DNA of 64,000 nt from Justusliebigvirus alia. The stretch lies in sequence record OZ035799.1; one strand, given 5' to 3'. The notes below the pieces were generated by a model. That model made no database searches. It had not been told where the DNA came from and was given only the letters and a program-made list of their open reading frames with translations. How positions within the stretch are numbered: the first letter of the stretch is position 1; every line of letters starts with the position of its first letter. Below, piece after piece: positions 11,162 to 56,003 of this stretch. A program made the position numbers and the translations under genes.

Positions 11162-11530
11162 ATGCAAGAAAATAATAAAGTGTGTAACATGAAAAGCAGC
11201 CCCTATTTGCTACAATTTTATGAGTGGTGGTTAGAACAAGAAGATACAAACTTTAGCAAAAAGCATTATGGTCTTTGCACGTGTCTTGTAGACTTCTTAT
11301 ACAATATTGCTTGGATAAAAGATGTTGAGAATGTATCAAAGCTCCAATCCTCTGTACGAGAGGAAATGAAGGAACAATTTAAGAAAGCGGGTTTGAACCA
11401 TTTACATCCGTTTAATACGGATTTCTCGCACTACTTTACGGAAACAGAGCTAGGCATTGCACACCTTAATAAAGAACGTGTACAATGGGTGATTGATCGT
11501 ATTCGTGATATGGAGGAATACAATGGTTAA
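11162..11530 (+). CDS. hypothetical protein, paralog family member C (122 aa)
   Basis: RBS TAAGGAG; family motifs GLCTCLVD, PFN, VQWVIDRI. Confidence 0.7.
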   Translation: MQENNKVCNMKSSPYLLQFYEWWLEQEDTNFSKKHYGLCTCLVDFLYNIAWIKDVENVSKLQSSVREEMKEQFKKAGLNHLHPFNTDFSHYFTETELGIAHLNKERVQWVIDRIRDMEEYNG

Positions 11531-20543: not shown

Positions 20544-21356
20544 TTACTTAGTCAAATGATCTTCTATCATTTTTATGAAAGCAGGATTGCTAAAAGCATC
20601 TGCTGCCTTTTCTCTATAAACAAAGACTCCTCTATCTTCGTAAAGAAGAGTTTCTTCGTAATTAATTCCTGGGTTAACAACAATCATTTTTGTACCCATA
20701 CTAAGTGCAGGGAATAATTCCCAATTAAAATTGATAACTTGGTTTGAACATCCTACTACAACAACCAAATCTTGCATGGTCAAAGTATCAAACAAGTGAG
20801 CCATATCTGCATACAAAGGTGCAGCCTCACCAAAAAATACAACATTAGGCTTCACCCAATTATAATCATCTATGTTTATACTATTGTAACCAATGTCTAC
20901 CAGTGTTTTGTAATCTCCAGGATGCATACGGTAAACTACTTCAGGAAGATACCCGTGCACGTGAATAACAGAATCCCTGTCCACACCTGCTCGCTCTAGT
21001 AGATCATCAACGTTTGTTGTCAAGTTTACTACTTGGTTAGGATATTCCTTAAACCACTTTGCTATTTGAATATGTGCAGCATTAGGTTGTACATCTTTAA
21101 GCTCAACACGTCTTTTGTTATAAAATTCGTGTGTTTTGGCATACAAGTCCATACCGTTCTCGTCTACACCACCGACCACTGGAAGATCTGGTGATGTTCT
21201 CACACGATAACCTGCTTGGAAAGCTCCAATATCGCAGATCTCTTCTAAATCCCATTCTTCCCATAAGGCACGACCACTATCTGTGTCTGTTCGGAATGTT
21301 CGAATCCCACTGTCTGCACTTAAACCAGCTCCACTAACAAAAATTACTCTTCGCAT
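20544..21356 (-). CDS. Sir2-family (sirtuin-like) NAD-dependent protein lacking the zinc-ribbon module
   Basis: motifs GAGLSADSGIRTFR, QPNAAH, TTNVDDLLERAG, HVHG, VVFFGE; no CxxC pairs. Confidence 0.75.
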   Translation of the reverse strand: MRRVIFVSGAGLSADSGIRTFRTDTDSGRALWEEWDLEEICDIGAFQAGYRVRTSPDLPVVGGVDENGMDLYAKTHEFYNKRRVELKDVQPNAAHIQIAKWFKEYPNQVVNLTTNVDDLLERAGVDRDSVIHVHGYLPEVVYRMHPGDYKTLVDIGYNSINIDDYNWVKPNVVFFGEAAPLYADMAHLFDTLTMQDLVVVVGCSNQVINFNWELFPALSMGTKMIVVNPGINYEETLLYEDRGVFVYREKAADAFSNPAFIKMIEDHLTK

Positions 21357-25518: not shown

Positions 25519-25839
25519 TTAACAAGTAATATTGGGAGTAACAATTGGATTAACAATTGGAGTGATAGGGTACGTAAACCAAGGGCTTCCAATTTCCCAA
25601 GGATTATAAGGTCTACGAGGATCAAATGGAGGAGTTACTTCAGGCTTTTTCCAAATCTCCGCTAGTTGTTTCTTCCATTTATCCCTTGCTGTCTCATTAT
25701 CTTCATCCAACTGTTCATCATTATCTTTTATTTCTGGTTTTGGAAATAAAAGCTCTTTGACTAACTCAACATCTTCCGTCTCAATAGTAGTTTCTTTCGT
25801 AAGTTCTCCTACTGTTTCTTTAATTGTGATTTTATACAT
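25519..25839 (-). CDS. hypothetical protein with Pro-rich C-terminus (106 aa)
   Basis: ORF. Confidence 0.5.
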   Translation of the reverse strand: MYKITIKETVGELTKETTIETEDVELVKELLFPKPEIKDNDEQLDEDNETARDKWKKQLAEIWKKPEVTPPFDPRRPYNPWEIGSPWFTYPITPIVNPIVTPNITC

Positions 25840-26585
25840 TAGTCCTCCTCTAAAGTAGAATAAAATTGTAACGTATTTGAATCATCAAAATATGCAAAGG
25901 TTAAATTACCATTGAAGCAAGATCCTGTGTCCATATATACCCTATTACTGCTAATTACAGGCTTAGGAACATAAGAATGCCCGTGAAATACATAATCTAC
26001 TCCTGAAACTCTAGGAAGAAGAATCCCTTCAAGTGCGCAATCTATCATATCACGATCCCACATTAAAGATTCTGTGAATCGAGAAACTTGCTCTTTATTC
26101 ATATTCAAACAAAATGGCAAAACTTCTGTCACTGGTAAATGTTCCAAAACTGAAGGATACCCACCGTGAATAAAGCCTAGTTTCATATTACGATAATTGA
26201 CAACAAGTACAACAGGTAAATCTTCTAGCATCAAAGCAAGAGCAGTTGCACCCTCTTCTCCACACTCGTCTAGAACTGTATGGCCTCCGTTCTGAAACCA
26301 ACATTCGTAATATCGTCTATCACCTTCTAGCAACCCTTTAATCATCATATCTTCATGATTTCCACGAATACCATAACGATTTAGCTTTCTGGTGAATTCA
26401 ACAACACAACGAAAATTCTGCTTGCCGCGATCTGTAAGATCTCCTAGAGATACAACAACATCTTGATCTCGGATACCTAAAGTATTAACACCTTTCTGGT
26501 ACAAATCAAAGCAACCATGTAAATCACCAATAATAAACAGGTCTTGATCATCTTTTACACTAATTTCTTGATATACTAACATCAA
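25839..26585 (-). CDS. Ser/Thr protein phosphatase (PPP-family metallophosphatase)
   Basis: motifs GDLHG, GDLTDRG, GNHE. Confidence 0.8.
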   Translation of the reverse strand: MMLVYQEISVKDDQDLFIIGDLHGCFDLYQKGVNTLGIRDQDVVVSLGDLTDRGKQNFRCVVEFTRKLNRYGIRGNHEDMMIKGLLEGDRRYYECWFQNGGHTVLDECGEEGATALALMLEDLPVVLVVNYRNMKLGFIHGGYPSVLEHLPVTEVLPFCLNMNKEQVSRFTESLMWDRDMIDCALEGILLPRVSGVDYVFHGHSYVPKPVISSNRVYMDTGSCFNGNLTFAYFDDSNTLQFYSTLEED

Positions 26586-26918: not shown

Positions 26919-27491
26919 TTAATGTGTTAATGAAACTGCGTAGCTAAACACAGGTTCAGATATTACATCGGCTACAGTAATAAAAACGTCTTCGTCTTGA
27001 GTTGTTTCTACACGACATACAGTTACACCATTCACCACGAATTCAACGCAATGTGGAATATCTTCACAAACGAAGGTAGTGTAAGTAACACCCAAAGCAT
27101 CATACAAAGATTTAACAGTGTTTGCAAGTGCCGCAGTTTCTTCTTTTTCTGAGACAATGAATGCTGTAACAACAAGATTGTTTGCATAGTTTAGACTGTC
27201 CTCTATAGCCAATGATTTACAAGGTAGTAATGCAAAATATTTACCTGGTTTAATCAGACCTGCTTCCCATTGATTCAAAATTGCCTGGGATGGTTTAGTA
27301 ATATAAAACAGATTTTCACTTGGGTTATCAATATTACTTCTGGCGATACAACGTGAAGGATTATTAATATCAAATACATGATCAAAATCTACACAAACAG
27401 GTAAACTGAAAGGTGTGAATTTTTTACCTAATAATCCTATGGCTGATAATATGTTTGCTGTGCTTATCTTCCCGTTAAAAGCTAAACGCAT
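26919..27491 (-). CDS. hypothetical protein (190 aa)
   Basis: ORF. Confidence 0.6.
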   Translation of the reverse strand: MRLAFNGKISTANILSAIGLLGKKFTPFSLPVCVDFDHVFDINNPSRCIARSNIDNPSENLFYITKPSQAILNQWEAGLIKPGKYFALLPCKSLAIEDSLNYANNLVVTAFIVSEKEETAALANTVKSLYDALGVTYTTFVCEDIPHCVEFVVNGVTVCRVETTQDEDVFITVADVISEPVFSYAVSLTH

Positions 27492-46999: not shown

Positions 47000-47212
47000 C
47001 TATTCATCATCTGAACTCTCTGTTGAGAATGTTCGTGTGTAGGGACACTGACGACTTGCAGAAACCTCTATAACCTTGTCGTACATACCGTTAGAGTAAA
47101 AACAGTATTTTGTACTTCCAGAAACTTGTTCTCCAGAATTAATTAAAGTTATTTGACCAGCATAAGAATAAGAACTGATTACTAAAAGTAAACCGACAAG
47201 AAGTTTTTTCAT
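47000..47212 (-). CDS. small secreted protein with signal peptide (70 aa)
   Basis: MKKLLVGLLLVISSYSYA signal-like N-terminus, two Cys. Confidence 0.5.
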   Translation of the reverse strand: MKKLLVGLLLVISSYSYAGQITLINSGEQVSGSTKYCFYSNGMYDKVIEVSASRQCPYTRTFSTESSDDE

Positions 47213-47287
47213 TGGTGTGTCTCCTTAAAAGCCCACCTAACTAAGTAGGTAGGCATATTAACACATATTAAATTAGTAAGTCAAGTA

Positions 47288-48172
47288 TTATTTTTGAATA
47301 GTTGACTTAATAAGGTCTTGCATAATACCACGGATTTCATTAAAGCACAGAAGGACAGATGCTTCAAAAGATCCTTCTTCATCGTTAAAGTATTTAGGGA
47401 ATTTAATACCACTCAACTTAAATTCTTTATCAACAATAAAGTTAACGAAACCGTCATATTCCAGGCCAATGGCAACAACGTGCTTACCATCTTCCATAAG
47501 TTCTACTGCACGAGATTCATAAAGGGATTCTTTACTCCATACAACCACACCTTCAGAATCTTCAAGTTTAATATAATTACCAAGGGTCAGTCGTTCAGCC
47601 TCATGTTCTTCTAAGATGGTATCAAAACCTTTAATAATGGCTTCTTCGTGTACACTAAACGGCAGGACTGGGAAAGTACCCAACACCTCACGAAGAAACA
47701 CAGCAATATCTTCACTAATTTTCTTAGTACCATTAAGAACGTAGGTAATACTGTTTTCAGTGTCTACAACAACATAGTTATAGAAATCATCTGCCTCTGT
47801 TTCTGGGAGCAGAGAAAACACGATATCAGCCTCAATTGCTTTTTTACTTTCTTTGTCCAAGAAGAATTCTTTAGTAGGATTTGCAGCAATAAACTCTTGT
47901 TCCATCTCTTGGAGTTTTTCATTAAGAATGCGTTTAACTTTTTTCTTGTTAACTTTTTTAACAGATTGCCCTACTTTAATAACCTCTAAACCAGAGAACA
48001 CTTTTACATAGGAACCATCATCTTCAAAACGAACAAGACCAATGGTATGTGCTTGTTGACCCTGTGCCACAACAAAATCCAGCGGTTTGTCTGTTACTGT
48101 GTTCAGTGCGGAAATAGACAGACCATCACCAGAAATCAGGGTTACGCAAGATTTGAAATTTTTAGCAAACAT
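47288..48172 (-). CDS. RdgC-like recombination-associated protein
   Basis: about 300 aa; GTFPVLPFSV resembles RdgC GSLPVVPLSM. Confidence 0.55.
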   Translation of the reverse strand: MFAKNFKSCVTLISGDGLSISALNTVTDKPLDFVVAQGQQAHTIGLVRFEDDGSYVKVFSGLEVIKVGQSVKKVNKKKVKRILNEKLQEMEQEFIAANPTKEFFLDKESKKAIEADIVFSLLPETEADDFYNYVVVDTENSITYVLNGTKKISEDIAVFLREVLGTFPVLPFSVHEEAIIKGFDTILEEHEAERLTLGNYIKLEDSEGVVVWSKESLYESRAVELMEDGKHVVAIGLEYDGFVNFIVDKEFKLSGIKFPKYFNDEEGSFEASVLLCFNEIRGIMQDLIKSTIQK

Positions 48173-48182
48173 AGTTTTCTCC

Positions 48183-48461
48183 TCAAATAATAACTACAAA
48201 ATATTTTACACCATCATATTCGACAATATGATCAGGATATTTAAATCCTTTATAAGATTTACCAAACAGACTAACAGCCTCATTAGCTTTGTTTTGCGGA
48301 TTACTCAGCCACTGTTCTTCTGTGTAAAACTTAAACTCTGTTCTCTTACCTTCTTTTTCTAAACCAACAATTTCCTGTGTGATATCTTCAATACCTGCAT
48401 TCTTCAAGGATTTAATTACCTGACGCAAACCGTGTTTAAAGATATCTTCTGCTGTTAACAT
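48183..48461 (-). CDS. hypothetical protein (92 aa)
   Basis: ORF. Confidence 0.5.
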   Translation of the reverse strand: MLTAEDIFKHGLRQVIKSLKNAGIEDITQEIVGLEKEGKRTEFKFYTEEQWLSNPQNKANEAVSLFGKSYKGFKYPDHIVEYDGVKYFVVII

Positions 48462-48497
48462 AATACCTCCAATAAGCCCCCGAAGGGGCTTTATTTC

Positions 48498-49220
48498 TTA
48501 AGCAATGATTGCTGCGATATTAGGTTTAACAAAGGTAGATGGTTTCATAATTTTACCTTTGTCATCAAAGAATACGTACACCTTTTGAACTTCGTTATAT
48601 ACAGCATGTACCCCAGTATAAGAACCTTCTGCACGATCTTTGCTTCGCATCTCGATAGCATCGCACTCTTTTTCAAGAGCTTCAATAATATCCTTAGTTT
48701 CCCAAATAGCCAGGAGTTGCTTCTTGGTAGGATACTTGGACTCATTGCTATTCAACACTTCACGCATAACCTTCTTCTCGTTATAAACAGAACGCACCAA
48801 AGTATCTCGTGCCATACGGGTAAGTGTAAGAGACATTAAGGCAAATTGCAAGTCATTTTCTACCATTTTATCAAATTCAATGATAACATCGTAAATGTTC
48901 TCTGCCAGAACATCTCCTGTCGGCATTTCCAGAGCTTTATCAACACCTTCTTTACCAAAGAACATAAATGCCAGATAGGATGCTACCACAAAAATATCTG
49001 CTGCTGCATCAAGCAATTCAACGTGATCATTTTCCTGTGCTGCTGCTTGAAACTCTTTAAGTTCTTCTCGTACAAAAGAAAGTTGAGCTTCAAACATCTC
49101 TTGAGTAAATTCTGGAGTTACTCCACCACGTGCCTTAGCATTCCAGGCAACAATTTGATCGGCAGCTTTGATAAAGAAGCTATTGTCCACTTTTACTTGT
49201 TTGAAAAAATTCTCGATCAT
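48498..49220 (-). CDS. MazG-like all-alpha nucleoside-triphosphate pyrophosphohydrolase, putative
   Basis: EELKEF...ELLDAAADIFVV pattern. Confidence 0.4.
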   Translation of the reverse strand: MIENFFKQVKVDNSFFIKAADQIVAWNAKARGGVTPEFTQEMFEAQLSFVREELKEFQAAAQENDHVELLDAAADIFVVASYLAFMFFGKEGVDKALEMPTGDVLAENIYDVIIEFDKMVENDLQFALMSLTLTRMARDTLVRSVYNEKKVMREVLNSNESKYPTKKQLLAIWETKDIIEALEKECDAIEMRSKDRAEGSYTGVHAVYNEVQKVYVFFDDKGKIMKPSTFVKPNIAAIIA

Positions 49221-49229
49221 TGTTTCTCC

Positions 49230-49409
49230 TTATTTAAAATATTGTTCTAACAAAACACTAATGCGAACTACCGATTCGCCCATATACGCCCCAGCACAGA
49301 GGAAAACAACAAATCTACAAAAATTGCAGTACCATTTGTCCACTGGAAACGAGGCTAACATTATAATTGCAATAGCAATTAACATCATAAGAACTGTTAC
49401 TAATACCAT
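49230..49409 (-). CDS. small membrane protein (59 aa)
   Basis: start refined to MVLVTVL with RBS AAGAGG. Confidence 0.45.
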   Translation of the reverse strand: MVLVTVLMMLIAIAIIMLASFPVDKWYCNFCRFVVFLCAGAYMGESVVRISVLLEQYFK

Positions 49410-49417
49410 ATTACCTC

Positions 49418-50533
49418 TTACTCTGCTGGTTCCCAAGTACCTGGAATCATCTTACGTACACGTACCCCAACAGGCTTGGTAGGAATACCTTCGTCTGAAA
49501 ATTCTTCGTACTCTATTTCAACAAATTGACCAATAAGTGTCAAAGCATTTTCTTCTTTACGATAGTTAATGGTTTCATCTGAATCCTTACGCATCAGGAA
49601 TTCGACTACTTTACCATTTTCCATCTCGCCTGTCAATACCCCGTCACCATTTTTATCACGCTTTGCACTTACCACTTTAACTTCAAGCGTCTGACGTGGT
49701 TTACGTTTAATAACATCATAAGAACGTTTATCGAATTCGTAAACACCTTTTGCGTTACGATACACCACACCTTCCGCTTTCTCACGTAGAGCTTTTGCAT
49801 AGAAAGCATCAAACTGTTCTTGGTTTTCAATGTACTCTGTATGTACTACACAAATAAGTTCATCTAAACCTTTATCTTCAACAACTTCTTTTAGAGCAGC
49901 CAAAACTTGAACCCTCTTCTCAAATGGTACAGATGCCACAGGAACATCATATACATAGTATTTAAGAAGCGGTGTGTTAGCATTATGCTTTTTCCACGCA
50001 CTATTAATTTGTTGAAGGCTAAGGATACCTAAACCAGCAAAAACTTCACCGTCAAGAGGATGACCAACTACTTCTTTAATGAAGGTTGGAATTTCTTCCC
50101 AGTGAGGTGGAAGTTTATATACCTCCCCAGCTTTAGATAAACATTCACCTTGCATGTTAATCATTGAACGTAGACCATTCAATTTATATTGTGCATAACC
50201 AGGGAACAAAACACGATCAGCATAATCTTTATAATCCTGACATTTCATGGGTGTGGAAGGAACATGGTTTTCAGCTTCCTCTTTTGTTTTATAGTACCCA
50301 TTCTTAAGTTGCTTTGTCCATTTGGCAAGAGCTTCTATTTCAGCTTGTTCTTCTGCTGTTGTTTCATTTGAGCGACCAATATTTTTAGGTTCTGCCATAT
50401 AAGATTTGCTAGTGATCTTTCCACCTAATTGACCATGAGCAACAGTTACAACACTACCTTCGGTATAGACTGACCACTGTCTAATTTTACCTGTAGAAGT
50501 TTTACCATATAATGTAGGATTAGTTTGTTTCAT
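49418..50533 (-). CDS. ATP-dependent DNA ligase (nucleotidyltransferase with KxNG motif)
   Basis: motif I YKLNGLR; start refined to MKQTNP with RBS GGAGGT. Confidence 0.6.
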   Translation of the reverse strand: MKQTNPTLYGKTSTGKIRQWSVYTEGSVVTVAHGQLGGKITSKSYMAEPKNIGRSNETTAEEQAEIEALAKWTKQLKNGYYKTKEEAENHVPSTPMKCQDYKDYADRVLFPGYAQYKLNGLRSMINMQGECLSKAGEVYKLPPHWEEIPTFIKEVVGHPLDGEVFAGLGILSLQQINSAWKKHNANTPLLKYYVYDVPVASVPFEKRVQVLAALKEVVEDKGLDELICVVHTEYIENQEQFDAFYAKALREKAEGVVYRNAKGVYEFDKRSYDVIKRKPRQTLEVKVVSAKRDKNGDGVLTGEMENGKVVEFLMRKDSDETINYRKEENALTLIGQFVEIEYEEFSDEGIPTKPVGVRVRKMIPGTWEPAE

Positions 50534-50723
50534 CTTTAACCTCCAGTTGCGAAAGAACCCATTTAGCAATTTCAATTTCACCGTGTAGTCTGCCTAGTTC
50601 ATAGGCATCATCAATATTACCACCAGTGTAATCATCCACCATAAAGTAAGGATCTTCACTACTGTTAGGCGCGTTTGCAATTCTCGTTAGTTCTTCAATA
50701 AATGTCATAGTTAACCTTACCAA
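50520..50723 (-). CDS. hypothetical protein (67 aa)
   Basis: ORF. Confidence 0.45.
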   Translation of the reverse strand: MVRLTMTFIEELTRIANAPNSSEDPYFMVDDYTGGNIDDAYELGRLHGEIEIAKWVLSQLEVKDETN

Positions 50724-50941
50724 TTATACACAAGAGTTTGAATTTCTTCCATCAAGTCTTCAAGATCTGTATCAACATATTCAGAAGATGTTGCCATAAA
50801 GTATGTAATCATTGTGAACCCTTCAGAAGAAAGGGCATCAAGAATATCATTAAACATATCTTCCATTTCAGTATTCTCACCAAACGAGAATAACATTTGT
50901 TGATCTTCGCTTACACCTTTAACATAGATAGCTGTGCTCAT
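50717..50941 (-). CDS. hypothetical acidic protein (74 aa)
   Basis: ORF. Confidence 0.45.
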   Translation of the reverse strand: MSTAIYVKGVSEDQQMLFSFGENTEMEDMFNDILDALSSEGFTMITYFMATSSEYVDTDLEDLMEEIQTLVYNW

Positions 50942-50944
50942 ATA

Positions 50945-51265
50945 TTAATCCTTAAGACGTTCATTTAAATCTGCAATAACATCACCTAAATCTTCACATT
51001 CTAGGGTTAACTCTGAAACTTGTCCACTCAAATAACAAACTTCTTCATTTAGATCTGAAATAATGTTTTCTAATGAATCTACTTGGTCATCATATGAACG
51101 TTTTGTTTCTTCAAGTTCTTCCGTAAGATCATTAATCAAATGCAGCAAAGATAAGATATAGCCGTCTCCTGTCTCGTTCCTCCACTCACTTCCGTAGCGA
51201 TAAATAATAATTTCACCATTATCGACTACTGTAAAATACTTACCTTCACCAGAATAAATTTCCAT
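50945..51265 (-). CDS. coiled-coil hypothetical protein (106 aa)
   Basis: heptad-like LxxE repeats. Confidence 0.5.
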   Translation of the reverse strand: MEIYSGEGKYFTVVDNGEIIIYRYGSEWRNETGDGYILSLLHLINDLTEELEETKRSYDDQVDSLENIISDLNEEVCYLSGQVSELTLECEDLGDVIADLNERLKD

Positions 51266-51274
51266 ACACTCTCC

Positions 51275-51679
51275 TTATTGTAGCTTAAGTGAACTGCGAA
51301 GACGTTTTTCTTGCTGATCACGAATATGTTGTGGAACCTCATGAATTGAGTCGTTACCGTGCCTATTTTCAACTACTAAAGAGATAACTTGATAACCAAA
51401 CTCTTCAGCAAGAGTTAAATAAGGTTTAAGTTCTTTCTCTGTGGTTGAAGTGTTAGAGACAATAATCTTTTTAATATTAGATGCCATAGCATCACGAACA
51501 ATACTCTGACACCATGCGTGTGCTTTACCTACATTCTCTGGCTTCCAATCGTAAACACCACTTTCTGTGTAATGATATTGATCTGCCTCACAGATAGGCC
51601 AATAACCTTCAGAAATAATTTCTGCTACTGTAGATTTACCTGCACCTGAAACACCACGTAAGATGATAAGTTGTTTCAT
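51275..51679 (-). CDS. P-loop kinase, polynucleotide 5-prime-kinase-like
   Basis: Walker A GVSGAGKST at N-terminus. Confidence 0.55.
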   Translation of the reverse strand: MKQLIILRGVSGAGKSTVAEIISEGYWPICEADQYHYTESGVYDWKPENVGKAHAWCQSIVRDAMASNIKKIIVSNTSTTEKELKPYLTLAEEFGYQVISLVVENRHGNDSIHEVPQHIRDQQEKRLRSSLKLQ

Positions 51680-52612
51680 TTAGCCTCCAAAGAAGTTTTC
51701 TATTTCTTTACGTCTCTCTTGTGGGTCGAGAGCAGCCCATTGAGCCTTCGTAAATTTATTTCGAAGCCATTCTAGCAAAGTATAATATTCTTCGTCAACA
51801 ATTTGTTTAGCATTGTTTGGGTTGTCCCAAATCATATCCCACTTCTTATTGCCACCACGCATAAGGAATTTCTTAGCAAGATAGTATGGTGACTTAATCT
51901 TTAACAGTAAGTTAAACGGATAGTTTGTTTCACGAACAACAAACCCTTCGTGTTTACAATGTTTAGACATTTCAACAACATCTGAAAATTTAATCATCGG
52001 ATAAACTTCAGGACGTTTAAACTTTGTAATAGATGCAATCCCATCAAGAACACCTTCAGGTAACATGAAACTTGTCCCATCAAGATTTTGAATTCTTGCT
52101 CCAATTAAGTATGCGCCTGGTTCTTCTTCGACAATATGTGGATCAGAAGGATCACAGATTTCAAAAAGAAAAGTTGCTTTTGCACTTTCTGTCCACTTAA
52201 TGAAATACTCTATGTCGTCACACTCGGAAACAATACGGTTCTTTGCCATAATTGCGAAATCTGATTCTAGGCTCCCTGTTGTTGATACAACAAGTTTCCC
52301 TTTGTACACACCTACAGATGCCATAAAACCGTTTACTTTACGGACAGCATCTACAATTTCGTCTGCTGGAAGATCTGTACCATTTTCAAAACGATTAAAG
52401 ATTTTAGTAAAAGGCCAAATAACAACATTGTCTTCTGAGTCAACAACCAACCCACGACAATCTAGAAGTCGTTTGTCAACGTTCCACAAATTATCCCAGA
52501 ATACATTATTTTTGTATTTAAGCACAGCAAGACCAGCATACTCTCCAGATTTAACTTCTTTTTTATGCACTAAACCTTTTGCAATCAGGTCATCACAATT
52601 GAACTTAGCCAC
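51680..52612 (-). CDS. RNA ligase-like nucleotidyltransferase (putative tRNA repair ligase)
   Basis: KxNG motif (RKVNGF); between kinase and phosphoesterase genes. Confidence 0.5.
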   Translation of the reverse strand: MAKFNCDDLIAKGLVHKKEVKSGEYAGLAVLKYKNNVFWDNLWNVDKRLLDCRGLVVDSEDNVVIWPFTKIFNRFENGTDLPADEIVDAVRKVNGFMASVGVYKGKLVVSTTGSLESDFAIMAKNRIVSECDDIEYFIKWTESAKATFLFEICDPSDPHIVEEEPGAYLIGARIQNLDGTSFMLPEGVLDGIASITKFKRPEVYPMIKFSDVVEMSKHCKHEGFVVRETNYPFNLLLKIKSPYYLAKKFLMRGGNKKWDMIWDNPNNAKQIVDEEYYTLLEWLRNKFTKAQWAALDPQERRKEIENFFGG

Positions 52613-52613
52613 C

Positions 52614-53165
52614 TTAATCTCCTTTGATTATCTTATGATGATCTACAACAATAATATCACGCTTATCCATAATAGAGATGATTTCGTCAAAATGCAAGAT
52701 TTTCCCGTGTGCATCCCAACCAACATCCAACATTTTCCCATACAAATGATCAGGGAATGATCCGTGAGAGTGTCCGTGTAGCATGATTGATCCATGCCCT
52801 TGTTTATTCCATGCAGCCATAGGGTAATGGCTTAAGACGAAGAACAGCTTCTGATATTTCACTTCGTCATAATACACAACTTCTCCATACTCTGCAAGCA
52901 CTTTTCTGTGTTTACTATAATCATGGTTCCCAACACAGTAAGTAATATCCCCTTGGAGACGGGAAGCAATCTTACGGGTATCTTCTTCAGTCCCGAAACA
53001 GAAGTCCCCAAGATGGTACATCTTTACTCCTGGTGTTGTGGCACATTTATTCCATGCTTCGATCAGTGCTTCTGTCATATGCTCCATATCTTCCCACGGG
53101 CGATATTCAGGAGCAAACTCTCGGATACGTTTGTGCATAAAATGCAAATCACTTGTAATAAACAT
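52614..53165 (-). CDS. calcineurin-like metallophosphoesterase
   Basis: motifs SDLHF, GDFCFG, GNHDY. Confidence 0.7.
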   Translation of the reverse strand: MFITSDLHFMHKRIREFAPEYRPWEDMEHMTEALIEAWNKCATTPGVKMYHLGDFCFGTEEDTRKIASRLQGDITYCVGNHDYSKHRKVLAEYGEVVYYDEVKYQKLFFVLSHYPMAAWNKQGHGSIMLHGHSHGSFPDHLYGKMLDVGWDAHGKILHFDEIISIMDKRDIIVVDHHKIIKGD

Positions 53166-53527
53166 TAGTATAATCCCTCGCTGAATAGTTCACTGTTGTG
53201 ACCATTTCTTTCGTAGTTAATTTGTTTGGCGTTATCTGCAATGATATAAGCATCTTTGCGACTCCACCAGTTATAATACTGATCAATAAACCCTTGATTA
53301 TCAGGTAAGCAAAACAGTTTATCAATCAATCCTGCATCTTTTAAAACATTAAGTTGTGCAGATAGTACAGGATTTGCATGCCTAACACAAGGAATAATTA
53401 ACTCTTCGCCATTATTGAGAATATACTTATTCGCAGCGCAGACTATAACACGTTGAGCATAGTGATCCTCACCAATCCAAGTAAGAGGTTGGTAACAAAT
53501 ATCATGTTGATTAGTAGCGCACATCAA
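53165..53527 (-). CDS. hypothetical protein (120 aa)
   Basis: ORF. Confidence 0.5.
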   Translation of the reverse strand: MMCATNQHDICYQPLTWIGEDHYAQRVIVCAANKYILNNGEELIIPCVRHANPVLSAQLNVLKDAGLIDKLFCLPDNQGFIDQYYNWWSRKDAYIIADNAKQINYERNGHNSELFSEGLY

Positions 53528-53673
53528 TTTTCTCCGTACTCTTTTAATCTATCAGCGAAAAAACTGTAATCAGGAAGTAAAAGATCATTACTCATATCGT
53601 TACAGTTTTCTTCCTCTTTATAGATAAAACGCCCTTCATCCTCTTCTTGCTCTGACCAAACTGAATAATGCAT
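53524..53673 (-). CDS. small acidic hypothetical protein (49 aa)
   Basis: ORF not in track. Confidence 0.35.
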   Translation of the reverse strand: MHYSVWSEQEEDEGRFIYKEEENCNDMSNDLLLPDYSFFADRLKEYGEN

Positions 53674-53682
53674 AATACCTAC

Positions 53683-54057
53683 TTAATAGTTAACACGTTT
53701 AATTTCAACACCATAGGATGAAATAAAATTTTCCTTAGCTAACATATATTTACTAGCAGCAGAAGGATTTGATGTATGAACATAGATAGTTTTAAGAGCA
53801 TCCCATTCACCTGCGTACAACATACATTCTACGTCTAAGAACGCATGATATCCTTCTTGATCTTCTCCAAGATCATTATCGAAGTGTATCTCTGAGATAT
53901 TATTGAAATTATCTTCATCTGAAACAAAAGATGACCAATCCCCAAAAGATTTTAACCAAATGGCATCCTCATAACCATAATCTTTAGGATCTCTTAAATC
54001 GTCTAACCAAAGAATTTTAGCCACTATCAACCCCCTTCCTGTTTCTCTTCTTTCCAA
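53683..54057 (-). CDS. hypothetical protein (124 aa)
   Basis: ORF. Confidence 0.5.
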   Translation of the reverse strand: MERRETGRGLIVAKILWLDDLRDPKDYGYEDAIWLKSFGDWSSFVSDEDNFNNISEIHFDNDLGEDQEGYHAFLDVECMLYAGEWDALKTIYVHTSNPSAASKYMLAKENFISSYGVEIKRVNY

Positions 54058-54218
54058 GTTTTACCTTTATCTACCAATTGCTTAGAAACAGCAAATCTTT
54101 CTCCATTGACATAAAACAGATAAAGAATAAAGGATTTTCCTATAGTTACAGTATCTACTACTTCTACACGCTTTACACCTTGCATGTATTTGGCTTTACC
54201 TGAATAAATAAGGAACAT
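54027..54218 (-). CDS. hypothetical protein (63 aa)
   Basis: ORF. Confidence 0.4.
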   Translation of the reverse strand: MFLIYSGKAKYMQGVKRVEVVDTVTIGKSFILYLFYVNGERFAVSKQLVDKGKTWKEEKQEGG

Positions 54219-54496
54219 TATTTATTCCTTTTGTTGTTGATCACATCTAAAGCTGTGTAAGGTTTGTTTGTACCGCTGTATTCAAGAATAATTGGTGCAT
54301 GTTCATAGACAAACTCAAAAGTACCATACACAGAATCTGCAACTGAAATAAGCATTTCAGTGTCTTCATCGTTCTTAATTAATGAAAACCTTGCCCCTGG
54401 TTTATTGAGCACTTCATATTTCTTACCTGCTGTCAGCAAACCTGAATACCATTCATTTTGCACAACAGACAAACACTTCAGATAGGTTTTTCTCAT
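54218..54496 (-). CDS. hypothetical protein (92 aa)
   Basis: ORF. Confidence 0.5.
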   Translation of the reverse strand: MRKTYLKCLSVVQNEWYSGLLTAGKKYEVLNKPGARFSLIKNDEDTEMLISVADSVYGTFEFVYEHAPIILEYSGTNKPYTALDVINNKRNK

Positions 54497-54834
54497 TTCT
54501 TTTTGCTCCTTCTTTTAGGCTTCTCGTATAAACCTAACACAGCAGACTCTTTTGCACAGATAGGAACTGACTTCATTCCTCGTTTTTTGGCTTCTGGTAG
54601 ATTCAAAACCCACCAGCCAAACCAATACAATTCATCTTCTGTGAAAGGATCTGCCATAGGATCTGCATCACGTTCTTCAAATCTAGCAAGAGCTTCTTCT
54701 ATCTTCTCTATTGGAGTATCAAAGACAAAAGCCTCTGTGTCAAATTTTTGTTTCTTAGGAGAGGCTTTTGCCGCCCCATCTTTAGATGCGCGCTTTGTTA
54801 CGGATCGCTTCTTCGGTGTTTTCGCCATCAACAA
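54493..54834 (-). CDS. lysine-rich basic protein (113 aa), possible nucleic-acid binding
   Basis: KKR-rich N- and C-termini. Confidence 0.5.
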   Translation of the reverse strand: MLMAKTPKKRSVTKRASKDGAAKASPKKQKFDTEAFVFDTPIEKIEEALARFEERDADPMADPFTEDELYWFGWWVLNLPEAKKRGMKSVPICAKESAVLGLYEKPKRRSKKK

Positions 54835-55021
54835 CCTCCATACGGTGTAAGAAATCTTGCTGGAATCGCCAATACTGTTGACCAGTCCTTACATCTTCGT
54901 AGATCACAACAGGATCAAATACTTTAGATACACCCGCTGGTTTAGGAAAGCCAACTACACGATATAAACCACCTTTGCTAATACAAGAATATGTTACATC
55001 AGTTAAAATTTCTTTTTTCAT
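54782..55021 (-). CDS. hypothetical protein (79 aa)
   Basis: ORF, overlaps neighbour by about 50 nt. Confidence 0.4.
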   Translation of the reverse strand: MKKEILTDVTYSCISKGGLYRVVGFPKPAGVSKVFDPVVIYEDVRTGQQYWRFQQDFLHRMEVVDGENTEEAIRNKARI

Positions 55022-55215
55022 TTTTTAATAAACTCCAAAACAGGTACGTGATCAGCAGTCAAAGTTACACAATTGTAACTTACCTTTTCAACTTCAGAGA
55101 ATGCTTCAACCCAAAGCAAGAAATTCTCTTTAGCTTCTTCATAATTCAATGTTGACTTAACAACATGGAACTCACCAAGAATTACTCTATAGATTGTTTG
55201 CATAGTTTGATTCAT
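55018..55215 (-). CDS. hypothetical protein (65 aa)
   Basis: ORF. Confidence 0.45.
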   Translation of the reverse strand: MNQTMQTIYRVILGEFHVVKSTLNYEEAKENFLLWVEAFSEVEKVSYNCVTLTADHVPVLEFIKK

Positions 55216-55281
55216 TTCTTTTTCCTTTGTTTAAAATGTGTTAAACAATCGCAAATGCTTGTGACGCACTTTGTGATCCCA

Positions 55282-55650
55282 CTAATTAACGTCAGCACTA
55301 TGATTGTTGAGAGTATAGGATACTCCATCGCCCAAGTCAACATGAATCTCAACTCCTAACTGTCTTTCTAATGGTAAACGTTTTGAGAATTGATAATTAC
55401 AAAGTTTACAATCTAAGTCAAGCAACTCATGTTTGCTTAAACCTGGGATGATAACTTTGCTTCCCACTGTCCACTCAATACCTTCAAAGTTATCTCTTCT
55501 TTTCAAAATGTCAAGTAAGAAGATGATTTGTTGCCATTCCGTAGACAAGTCTTCTTCGTAGAACGCAGAACAAAAAGTTTTATCATCGTAGAAAGCATAC
55601 ATTATGCCTCCATCTACTGTTTCACTTCTAACGTAACGTGTGACCCTCAT
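55282..55650 (-). CDS. hypothetical protein (122 aa), first gene of minus-strand block
   Basis: ORF with RBS GGAGGGAATA. Confidence 0.55.
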   Translation of the reverse strand: MRVTRYVRSETVDGGIMYAFYDDKTFCSAFYEEDLSTEWQQIIFLLDILKRRDNFEGIEWTVGSKVIIPGLSKHELLDLDCKLCNYQFSKRLPLERQLGVEIHVDLGDGVSYTLNNHSADVN

Positions 55651-55671
55651 TATTCCCTCCTGTACGGCTCT

Positions 55672-55732
55672 GTAACGAGTTAATAGCCTTTAAGATATGC
55701 AATCACCTTACCTCACAGTAAAACTCGTTACA
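55672..55732. repeat. 10-bp inverted repeat GTAACGAGTT / AACTCGTTAC separated by about 40 bp in divergent promoter region
   Basis: seen directly. Confidence 0.5.
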
Positions 55733-56003
55733 ATCGTTTTTAGGAGGTTTAGGTTGTACTTAAAAATAATCCAAAAAGGTGTTGACAAACGCAAAAAAGT
55801 ATGCTACCCTAACCCCCGAAAAACGCCGAGCGCAGCGAGGGGGTGTTATCTAATCTTGTGATACATGATCTAACAGACAACTGAGTAGTCTACATATAGC
55901 ACTATGTTATGTCTATAATACTAACATACATGCTCTATACTAACAATAGATTCTTTATTAATTTTATTATTAATTAAATAATAAATTAAATAATAAATAT
56001 CTA

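Follow-up and report, generated by a model that had tools for sequence, protein, structure and literature searches.

A candidate split RNA healing-and-sealing cassette in a phi92-like coliphage

Defence systems that cleave tRNA are now recognised as common, and to our knowledge Pnkp and Rnl1 of bacteriophage T4 are the only phage repair answer that is understood experimentally. The two T4 enzymes repair the damage done by anticodon nucleases (cited in PMC7824862, PMC6379707 and PMC12409363). In T4, where the pair is a counter to PrrC, Pnkp (PseT) is a kinase fused to a HAD phosphatase and Rnl1 (gp63) is a ligase of 374 amino acids (aa). The Pnkp/Hen1 system of Clostridium thermocellum instead holds a kinase, a metallophosphoesterase (MPP) resembling lambda phosphatase and an Rnl4 ligase in one polypeptide (CthPnkp), with Hen1 as partner, while fungal and plant Trl1 consists of a ligase, a kinase and a 2H cyclic phosphodiesterase. 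In phages, RNA-repair modules have also been defined computationally, with Rnl1 or Rnl2 ligases, polynucleotide kinases, phosphatases of the HAD, calcineurin-like or HD type, and the cyclic-phosphate-processing Receiver domain cRec (Iyer, Anantharaman, Krishnan, Burroughs and Aravind 2021, PMC7824862). Here we analyse three consecutive genes at positions 51275–53165 of a 64,000-nucleotide stretch of Justusliebigvirus alia (record OZ035799.1; the whole stretch is called the window below). They encode a P-loop kinase, an RNA ligase and an MPP, and we consider it probable that they form a split RNA healing-and-sealing module of a phi92-like coliphage, likely directed at tRNA and serving counter-defence.

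All three genes lie on the minus strand and are read in the order MPP (52614..53165, 183 aa), RNA ligase (51680..52612, 310 aa, GTG start) and kinase (51275..51679, 134 aa). An earlier note on this DNA had placed three consecutive open reading frames (ORFs) here and had quoted a GVSGAGKST motif in the kinase and a KxNG motif in the ligase; the ORFs are all present, their translations were re-checked, and direct translation yields both motifs, the second as KVNG. Only 0–1 nt separates neighbouring genes, and a Shine-Dalgarno-like GGAG(G) is embedded in the 3' end of the preceding gene, which together suggest that the genes are co-expressed. Scans of positions 47000–57500 gave 39 promoter candidates against 35.1 ± 6.6 in shuffled sequence and 6 terminator candidates against 4.9 ± 2.4, neither above chance, and no operon boundaries could be assigned. 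Homologues number 2574 clusters for the ligase, 317 for the kinase and 11297 clusters at 50% identity for the MPP; with hundreds to thousands of homologues each, the ORFs are not chance occurrences. Some 55 further phi92-like myoviruses of E. coli (Stephanstirmvirinae, ~146–149 kb) are 97–99% identical over bases 49400–54100. Public records label the products 'putative RNA ligase / RNA repair' and 'phosphoesterase', and the kinase variously as 'ATPase', 'polynucleotide kinase' or 'nucleoside/nucleotide kinase'.

The family of the ligase was assigned by the profile searches that the earlier note had proposed. The 310-aa protein matches Pfam PF09511 (RNA_lig_T4_1) with 54.0 bits, above the gathering score of 28.3 (E-value 2.8e-14), over profile positions 2–227 of 227. 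A profile of 26 sequences of the family matches T4 Rnl1 (PDB 2c5u) at 2.4e-9; only the family profile reached this structure, a search of the PDB with the single sequence having returned nothing meaningful. Nucleotidyltransferase motifs I, III, IV and V are present as K92/G95, E151, E222-G223 and K238/K240, equivalent to K99/G102, E159, E227-G228 and K240/K242 of T4. Motif I (K92-V-N-G95; 52328..52339, minus strand) aligns to K99-E-D-G102 of T4 Rnl1 and contains K92, the predicted adenylylated lysine. Further upstream, R53, K70 and F72 align to T4 R54, K75 and F77, residues whose roles have been described (PMC6379707). Across the 26 homologues R53, K70, F72, K92, N94, G95, E151, E222, G223, K238 and K240 are invariant. 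Other families score lower: Rnl3 16–17, Rnl2 and Rnl5 12–13, DNA ligases at most 10, capping enzymes at most 8.5 and the Rnl4 ligase of Pnkp 7.8. Foldseek ranks the ligase families in the same order, with the Rnl1 type first, and the two closest structural relatives are T4 Rnl1 and Trl1, both of them tRNA ligases. By profile and fold the protein thus classifies as an ATP-dependent RNA ligase of Rnl1 type; the earlier note had named a DNA ligase or capping enzyme as the outcome that would speak against RNA repair, and the protein was found to be neither. RNA ligase families are, however, defined by the C-terminal domain appended to the catalytic core (PMC6379707), and since the 310-aa protein falls outside Rnl1 in this strict sense we call it Rnl1/Trl1-like. 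It probably forms a clade of its own.

For the kinase, the P-loop GVSGAGKST spans residues 9–17 (51629..51655, minus strand) and the Pfam assignment is AAA_33. Among 28 homologues G12, G14 and K15 are invariant, as are D33 and R106, which align with the general base D35 and the lid residue R126 of T4. The best PDB matches of the family profile are Pnkp1, the kinase of a Trl1, T4 Pnk, which aligns end to end, and CthPnk, and in fold the protein is nearest to polynucleotide kinases, not to nucleoside or nucleotide kinases. The earlier note had given a nucleotide kinase devoid of polynucleotide activity as a second finding that would undo its proposal; as far as family membership goes, profile and closest fold point to polynucleotide 5'-kinases and lend this no support. 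A predicted polynucleotide 5'-kinase of the T4 Pnk/CthPnk clade is therefore the supported assignment for the 134-aa protein. It consists of the kinase domain alone, with no C-terminal 3'-phosphatase domain of the DxDxT (HAD) type.

The putative phosphatase of the cassette is of a different kind, as the earlier note had maintained. The 183-aa protein carries the complete set of metal-ligand motifs of a binuclear MPP (DxH, GD, GNHD, H and GHxH), and 19 diverse homologues all have D6, H8, H11, D54, N80, H81, H113, H132 and H134. Bacterial Pnkp is a characterised precedent for an MPP that replaces a HAD phosphatase, although from another MPP clade. The protein matches phrog_547 at 8.5e-55; against Pfam Metallophos_2 it scores 20.6, under the cut-off of 27, while 12 of the 19 homologues match that family (best 4.3e-9). 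Its family profile matches PDB 1xm7 (aq_1665 of Aquifex, the sole solved relative) at 1.6e-21. The same profile search of the PDB did not retrieve the CthPnkp phosphatase or lambda phosphatase, so that MPPs with known RNA-end activity belong to a clade other than the aq_1665-type one. Hydrolysis of 2',3'-cyclic phosphates is established for binuclear MPPs of that other clade, lambda phosphatase and the phosphatase of CthPnkp (PMC2190708). Several relatives of the cassette MPP are fused to RNA-repair domains. The nearest representative at 50% identity (P0241, 524 aa, 55% identity) is joined to an Rnl2-type RNA ligase (PF09414), and in P0269 and P0274 an aq_1665-type MPP domain is joined to a HAD_SAK_2 phosphatase domain, as known from 'Swiss Army Knife' proteins of RNA repair. 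Linkage, fusions and the analogy to lambda phosphatase and CthPnkp make the MPP a candidate RNA 2',3'-end healing enzyme, with putative hydrolysis of RNA ends bearing a 2',3'-cyclic phosphate (RNA>p) or a 3'-phosphate (RNA-3'p). As a separate observation, the MPP-HAD fusions hint that an MPP and a monoesterase may split the steps between them, for example opening of the cyclic phosphate followed by its removal.

Linkage was examined in 80 loci from a scan of IMG/VR, in which relatives of the ligase at 38–96% identity were recovered and neighbours within 6 kb scored; clustering of the ligases at 50% identity reduced the sample to 21 clusters. Near the ligase we found the kinase in 73 of the 80 loci (19 of the 21 clusters) and the MPP in 66 of them (20 clusters). 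Other neighbours in the window recurred less often over the 21 clusters (DNA ligase in 10, MazG in 2, RdgC and a 106-aa ORF in 1 each). Gene order varies among the loci, which include mpp-lig-kin, kin-lig-mpp, lig-kin-mpp and lig-cRec-kin. Linkage of MPP, ligase and kinase is thus the rule for this ligase clade.

The genes are also found fused. In 11 viral loci kinase and ligase form a single ORF of ~430 aa; these loci have no MPP within 6 kb, and one of them, L055, has no other phosphoesterase nearby that Pfam recognises. The same kinase-ligase fusion occurs in genomes of Cardiobacteriaceae, with an aq_1665-type MPP adjacent or within ~700 bp. In cyanobacteria of the Leptolyngbyaceae one protein of ~730–770 aa combines an AAA_33 kinase, a CthPnkp-type phosphatase (PDB 4j6o at 5e-25, 4gp6 at 1.9e-9) and a ligase 31–35% identical to that of the window. 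Its architecture is Pnkp-like, but an Rnl1-like ligase takes the place of the Rnl4 ligase of characterised Pnkp. Loci with this cyanobacterial fusion are L084–L111, L114 and L115 (Leptolyngbyaceae and others), for example L086:4705-6903 and L102:4588-6903. Among the computational results, these independent fusions speak most strongly for a single RNA-end pathway served by the three families. With the family assignments and the conserved linkage they support the earlier note's proposal of a candidate healing-and-sealing system, and neither of the two findings it had named as contrary was made.

A fourth gene, which the earlier note overlooked while correctly recognising the other three, probably belongs to the same repair module. 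It encodes a cRec protein (53683..54057, minus strand) and lies ~520 bp upstream of the cassette in the same leftward array. The ORF extends to a TTG at 54057; in relatives a GTG at 54024 (113 aa), which follows the Shine-Dalgarno-like GGAAGGGGG, is the annotated start. The product matches PF20274 (cREC_REC) at 1.9e-13 with 51.3 bits (cut-off 27), and in 11 sequences the motifs W-DD-RDP, HFDNDLGE, VH(T/S)SNPSA and K-x-MLA fit the DD/D/T/K set of the Receiver type. Proteins with cRec have been predicted to open 2',3'-cyclic phosphates and are linked to RNA ligases (Iyer et al., PMC7824862). In six related loci, from rV5-like relatives, cRec sits between ligase and kinase, and in L004, L006, L008 and L013 no further ORF separates it from the ligase.

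Taking together the family and fold assignments, the conserved catalytic residues, the gene linkage and the gene fusions, all of them directly observed, we infer the following activities and order of steps. The pathway would start with an RNA cut by a host ribonuclease, most likely a tRNA-cleaving anticodon nuclease from a defence or toxin system, with a 5'-OH on one side of the break and a 2',3'-cyclic phosphate on the other. At the latter end the binuclear MPP would expose a 3'-OH by stripping off the terminal phosphate, and cRec may act before it to open the cyclic phosphate. The 134-aa kinase would move a phosphate from NTP onto the 5'-OH, with Asp33 as general base, Lys15 and Ser16 acting in the P-loop and Arg106 in the lid. 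Finally, the ligase, adenylylated on Lys92, would activate the 5'-phosphate and seal the break. The earlier note had linked such repair to a large tRNA set of the phage's own, and the window indeed holds 15 tRNA genes (59517-62140), including those for Lys, Tyr and Asn, ~6 kb from the cassette. Repair together with these phage tRNAs would sustain translation under attack.

Systems of this kind are already known, experimentally from T4 and bacterial Pnkp/Hen1, computationally from phages, and from labels in GenBank. What sets the cassette apart from every characterised system, as far as can be read from its genes, is the three-protein architecture, the aq_1665-type MPP, a mini-kinase with a histidine variant and the C-terminal module of the ligase. 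Where T4 has a kinase fused to a HAD phosphatase, the cassette has its 134-aa kinase and a separate binuclear MPP, and it has an associated cRec gene, unlike the T4 system. The kinase has His in place of Arg38 of T4 Pnk, and the ligase, at 310 aa against 374 aa for T4 Rnl1, lacks the C-domain of the latter and has Thr in place of its Lys119. Being divided over separate proteins, the cassette is not of the CthPnkp type. In comparison with Trl1, it has neither a 2H phosphodiesterase nor the C-domain in which Trl1 has its site for the 2'-phosphate, and the kinase is N-terminal in the cassette-type fusions, reversing the Trl1 order. The closest description is that of the computational survey, of whose modules the cassette is an instance (Rnl1-family ATP-grasp-type ligase, PNK, calcineurin-like phosphoesterase and RNA-ligase-linked cRec; PMC7824862); the survey dealt with jumbo phages and found the calcineurin-like option in 'a small number', whereas the cassette belongs to a 148-kb coliphage lineage. 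Since the concept itself is not new, the gain would be incremental and would leave the general understanding of such systems unchanged.

Several observations weigh against the proposed pathway. Arg38 of T4 Pnk is essential and binds the phosphate of the 5'-terminal nucleotide. The corresponding position (R41 in CthPnk) is taken in the cassette kinase by a near-invariant His36 within 'ADxYH', in the kinase-ligase fusions as well. In the ligase the motif Ia lysine (K119 of T4) is replaced by an invariant Thr112 within an 'STTG' motif; its counterpart in Trl1 (K135/K169) contacts the gamma-phosphate of ATP (PMC6379707). Motif V is followed by a helical, basic tail of ~50–65 aa and not by a C-domain of the T4 Rnl1 type, which is all-helical, comprises ~120 residues (~255–374) and confers specificity for the tRNA anticodon loop (PMC6379707). 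With this domain absent, the tRNA specificity of T4 Rnl1 is not transferable to the cassette ligase. The sole solved relative of the MPP (aq_1665, 1xm7) is a structure with no assigned function, and the MPP family, at 11297 clusters, is far larger than that of the ligase, so that most of its members probably act outside RNA repair. Cyclic phosphates could also be substrates of a lambda-phosphatase homologue that the window encodes away from the cassette, at 25839-26585. Only 10 of the 80 loci have cRec with the ligase, which makes it an accessory and not a core part. The cassette stands amid genes of DNA metabolism, and 33 of the 80 loci have a DNA ligase no more than 6 kb away. Finally, a survey of the literature on the cassette proteins, on Vequintavirinae/Stephanstirmvirinae and on aq_1665/1xm7 found no experimental work.

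The lack of a T4 Rnl1-type C-domain, from which anticodon-loop specificity would come (PMC6379707), also leaves room for the three enzymes to act as proposed on something other than tRNA cut by anticodon nucleases. They would then serve general RNA-end repair or processing, their substrates being mRNA or rRNA cut by toxin RNases, precursors of phage tRNAs, or RNAs to be circularised. No sequence feature names the substrate, and the same MPP family is found paired with Rnl2-type ligases that seal nicks. We nevertheless regard general repair as unlikely, if not negligibly so: the closest structural relatives of the ligase are tRNA ligases, the 15 tRNA genes, ~6 kb away, and a gene pair likely to restore NAD+ share the region of the cassette, and cleavage of the anticodon loop has been described as a widespread host attack on the translation apparatus, for which repair by T4 is the characterised precedent (PMC7824862). 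Somewhat more doubtful is the idea that the MPP has no part in 3'-end healing and merely travels with the ligase as a nucleotide or cyclic-nucleotide phosphodiesterase or as a protein phosphatase, with healing of the 3' end left to host enzymes, to cRec or to the homologue of lambda phosphatase (25839-26585). The large size of the MPP family, its mostly stand-alone members, the absence of a known function for the solved one and the 11 kinase-ligase fusion loci with no MPP within 6 kb are all compatible with such a role, as is the 2',3'-cNMP phosphodiesterase activity of lambda phosphatase (PMC2190708), of which the window has a homologue. Against it, the MPP has been kept at or near the ligase in 20 of the 21 clusters although gene order has been shuffled, members of its family are fused with HAD domains of RNA repair or with an RNA ligase, and in Cardiobacteriaceae it comes after the kinase-ligase fusion; cRec, for its part, is present in just 10 of the 80 loci. 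If cRec were to produce an end with 2'-phosphate and 3'-OH, one might speculate that the Trl1-like ligase acts as in yeast, in a pathway dependent on a 2'-phosphotransferase, but an MPP in the cassette speaks against such a pathway.

The remaining alternatives move the cassette away from RNA. T4 Pnkp also acts on DNA ends, and kinase and MPP could heal 5'-OH and 3'-phosphate ends of DNA for the nearby DNA ligase as a module of DNA repair or replication. The leftward array indeed contains ribonucleotide reductase (RNR), thymidylate synthase, exonucleases, RdgC, MazG and the DNA ligase, the last of which recurs near the cassette ligase in the 33 loci mentioned above. We find such a module improbable, since fusions in the loci examined join the kinase to the RNA ligase and never to a DNA ligase, the fusion partners of the MPP are RNA-repair domains, and it is the RNA ligase that kinase (19 of 21 clusters) and MPP (20 of 21) track, the DNA ligase being present in 10. 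Most improbable of all is that the Rnl1 homologue serves mainly to catalyse tail-fibre attachment, the second activity of T4 gp63. Its sole basis is the PHROG/pharokka label 'RNA ligase and tail fiber protein attachment catalyst', inherited from gp63, whereas every catalytic residue of the ligase is invariant, its gene is linked or fused to those of RNA-end-healing enzymes in an array of nucleic-acid metabolism, apart from the structural genes annotated nearby, and homologues occur in cyanobacterial chromosomes within Pnkp-like proteins.

If the cassette is an RNA repair module, as we think probable, a large group of E. coli, Klebsiella and Salmonella myoviruses from phage-therapy collections would carry an alternative repair kit, which would influence which host defences stop them. 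A large orphan family of MPPs, and the cRec domain, would gain a first function, and the cassette might yield a compact pair of RNA ligase and kinase of practical use. More tentatively, and with rather less confidence than doubt, we propose a joint reading that goes beyond this locus. The aq_1665-type MPPs (~11,000 clusters at 50% identity, with 1xm7 as one orphan structure) may be a widespread family of RNA 2',3'-end healing enzymes, and the 310-aa ligase may at the same time found a separate clade, in which an Rnl1/Trl1-type adenylyltransferase domain lacks the motif Ia lysine, is followed by a short basic C-terminal module of a new kind and has a His-variant Pnk as its dedicated partner. 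Were both parts true, MPP, ligase, kinase and cRec would constitute a modular RNA repair kit, variously split or fused in phages, Cardiobacteriaceae and cyanobacteria, and phi92- and rV5-like coliphages would gain resistance to tRNA-cleaving defence systems.

The window contains further genes that bear on this setting. The earlier note had counted in a separate ATP-dependent ligase 1 kb from the cassette (49418-50533). The gene is real, but it encodes a standard ATP-dependent DNA ligase (PF01068 with an OB domain; phrog_114 at 5e-75); we rejected it as the sealing enzyme, the pathway having no need of it with an RNA ligase already inside the cassette. A second MPP of the window, the clear homologue of lambda phosphatase (25839-26585, minus strand; PDB 1g5b at 2.1e-29), labelled 'NinI-like serine-threonine phosphatase' in phage Nernie, is by analogy an unlinked alternative candidate for healing of RNA 3' ends.

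On the plus strand, a PRPP-synthetase-like gene (56072-56965; PF00156, PF14572, PF13793) is followed by a gene of the NAPRTase family (57037-58770; PF04095, 2.5e-37). The two are divergent from the repair array and lie directly upstream of the tRNA genes, and they look like a two-gene NAD+ reconstitution (NARP1-like) counter-defence pair. On the minus strand, the window also has a SIR2-family protein (20544-21356; PF02146, 2.8e-22) and a 190-aa ORF (26919-27491) that is called 'histidyl tRNA synthetase' in a relative and has no Pfam match. The SIR2 protein, the 190-aa ORF, the NAD+ salvage pair and cRec suggest a wider toolkit for conflicts over NAD+/ADP-ribose and translation.

Between cRec and the MPP lie a 49-aa ORF and a 120-aa ORF (53165-53527, minus strand), the stop of the latter overlapping the MPP start (TAATG). 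The 120-aa product is a homologue of T4-like arn.3 (~45% identity), is found in 1511 phage records and has no Pfam or PDB match. Some records label it an 'anti-restriction nuclease', a name that seems to have been transferred from the adjacent arn gene of T4. We rejected the 120-aa ORF as a cassette member, given its presence in only 3 of the 80 ligase loci. A lysine-rich 113-aa ORF (54493-54834, minus strand), 'transposase-like' in one record and with no Pfam match, turns up no more than 6 kb from the ligase in 14 of the 80 loci, mostly those of rV5- and phi92-like phages, and in this exceeds other non-cassette neighbours.

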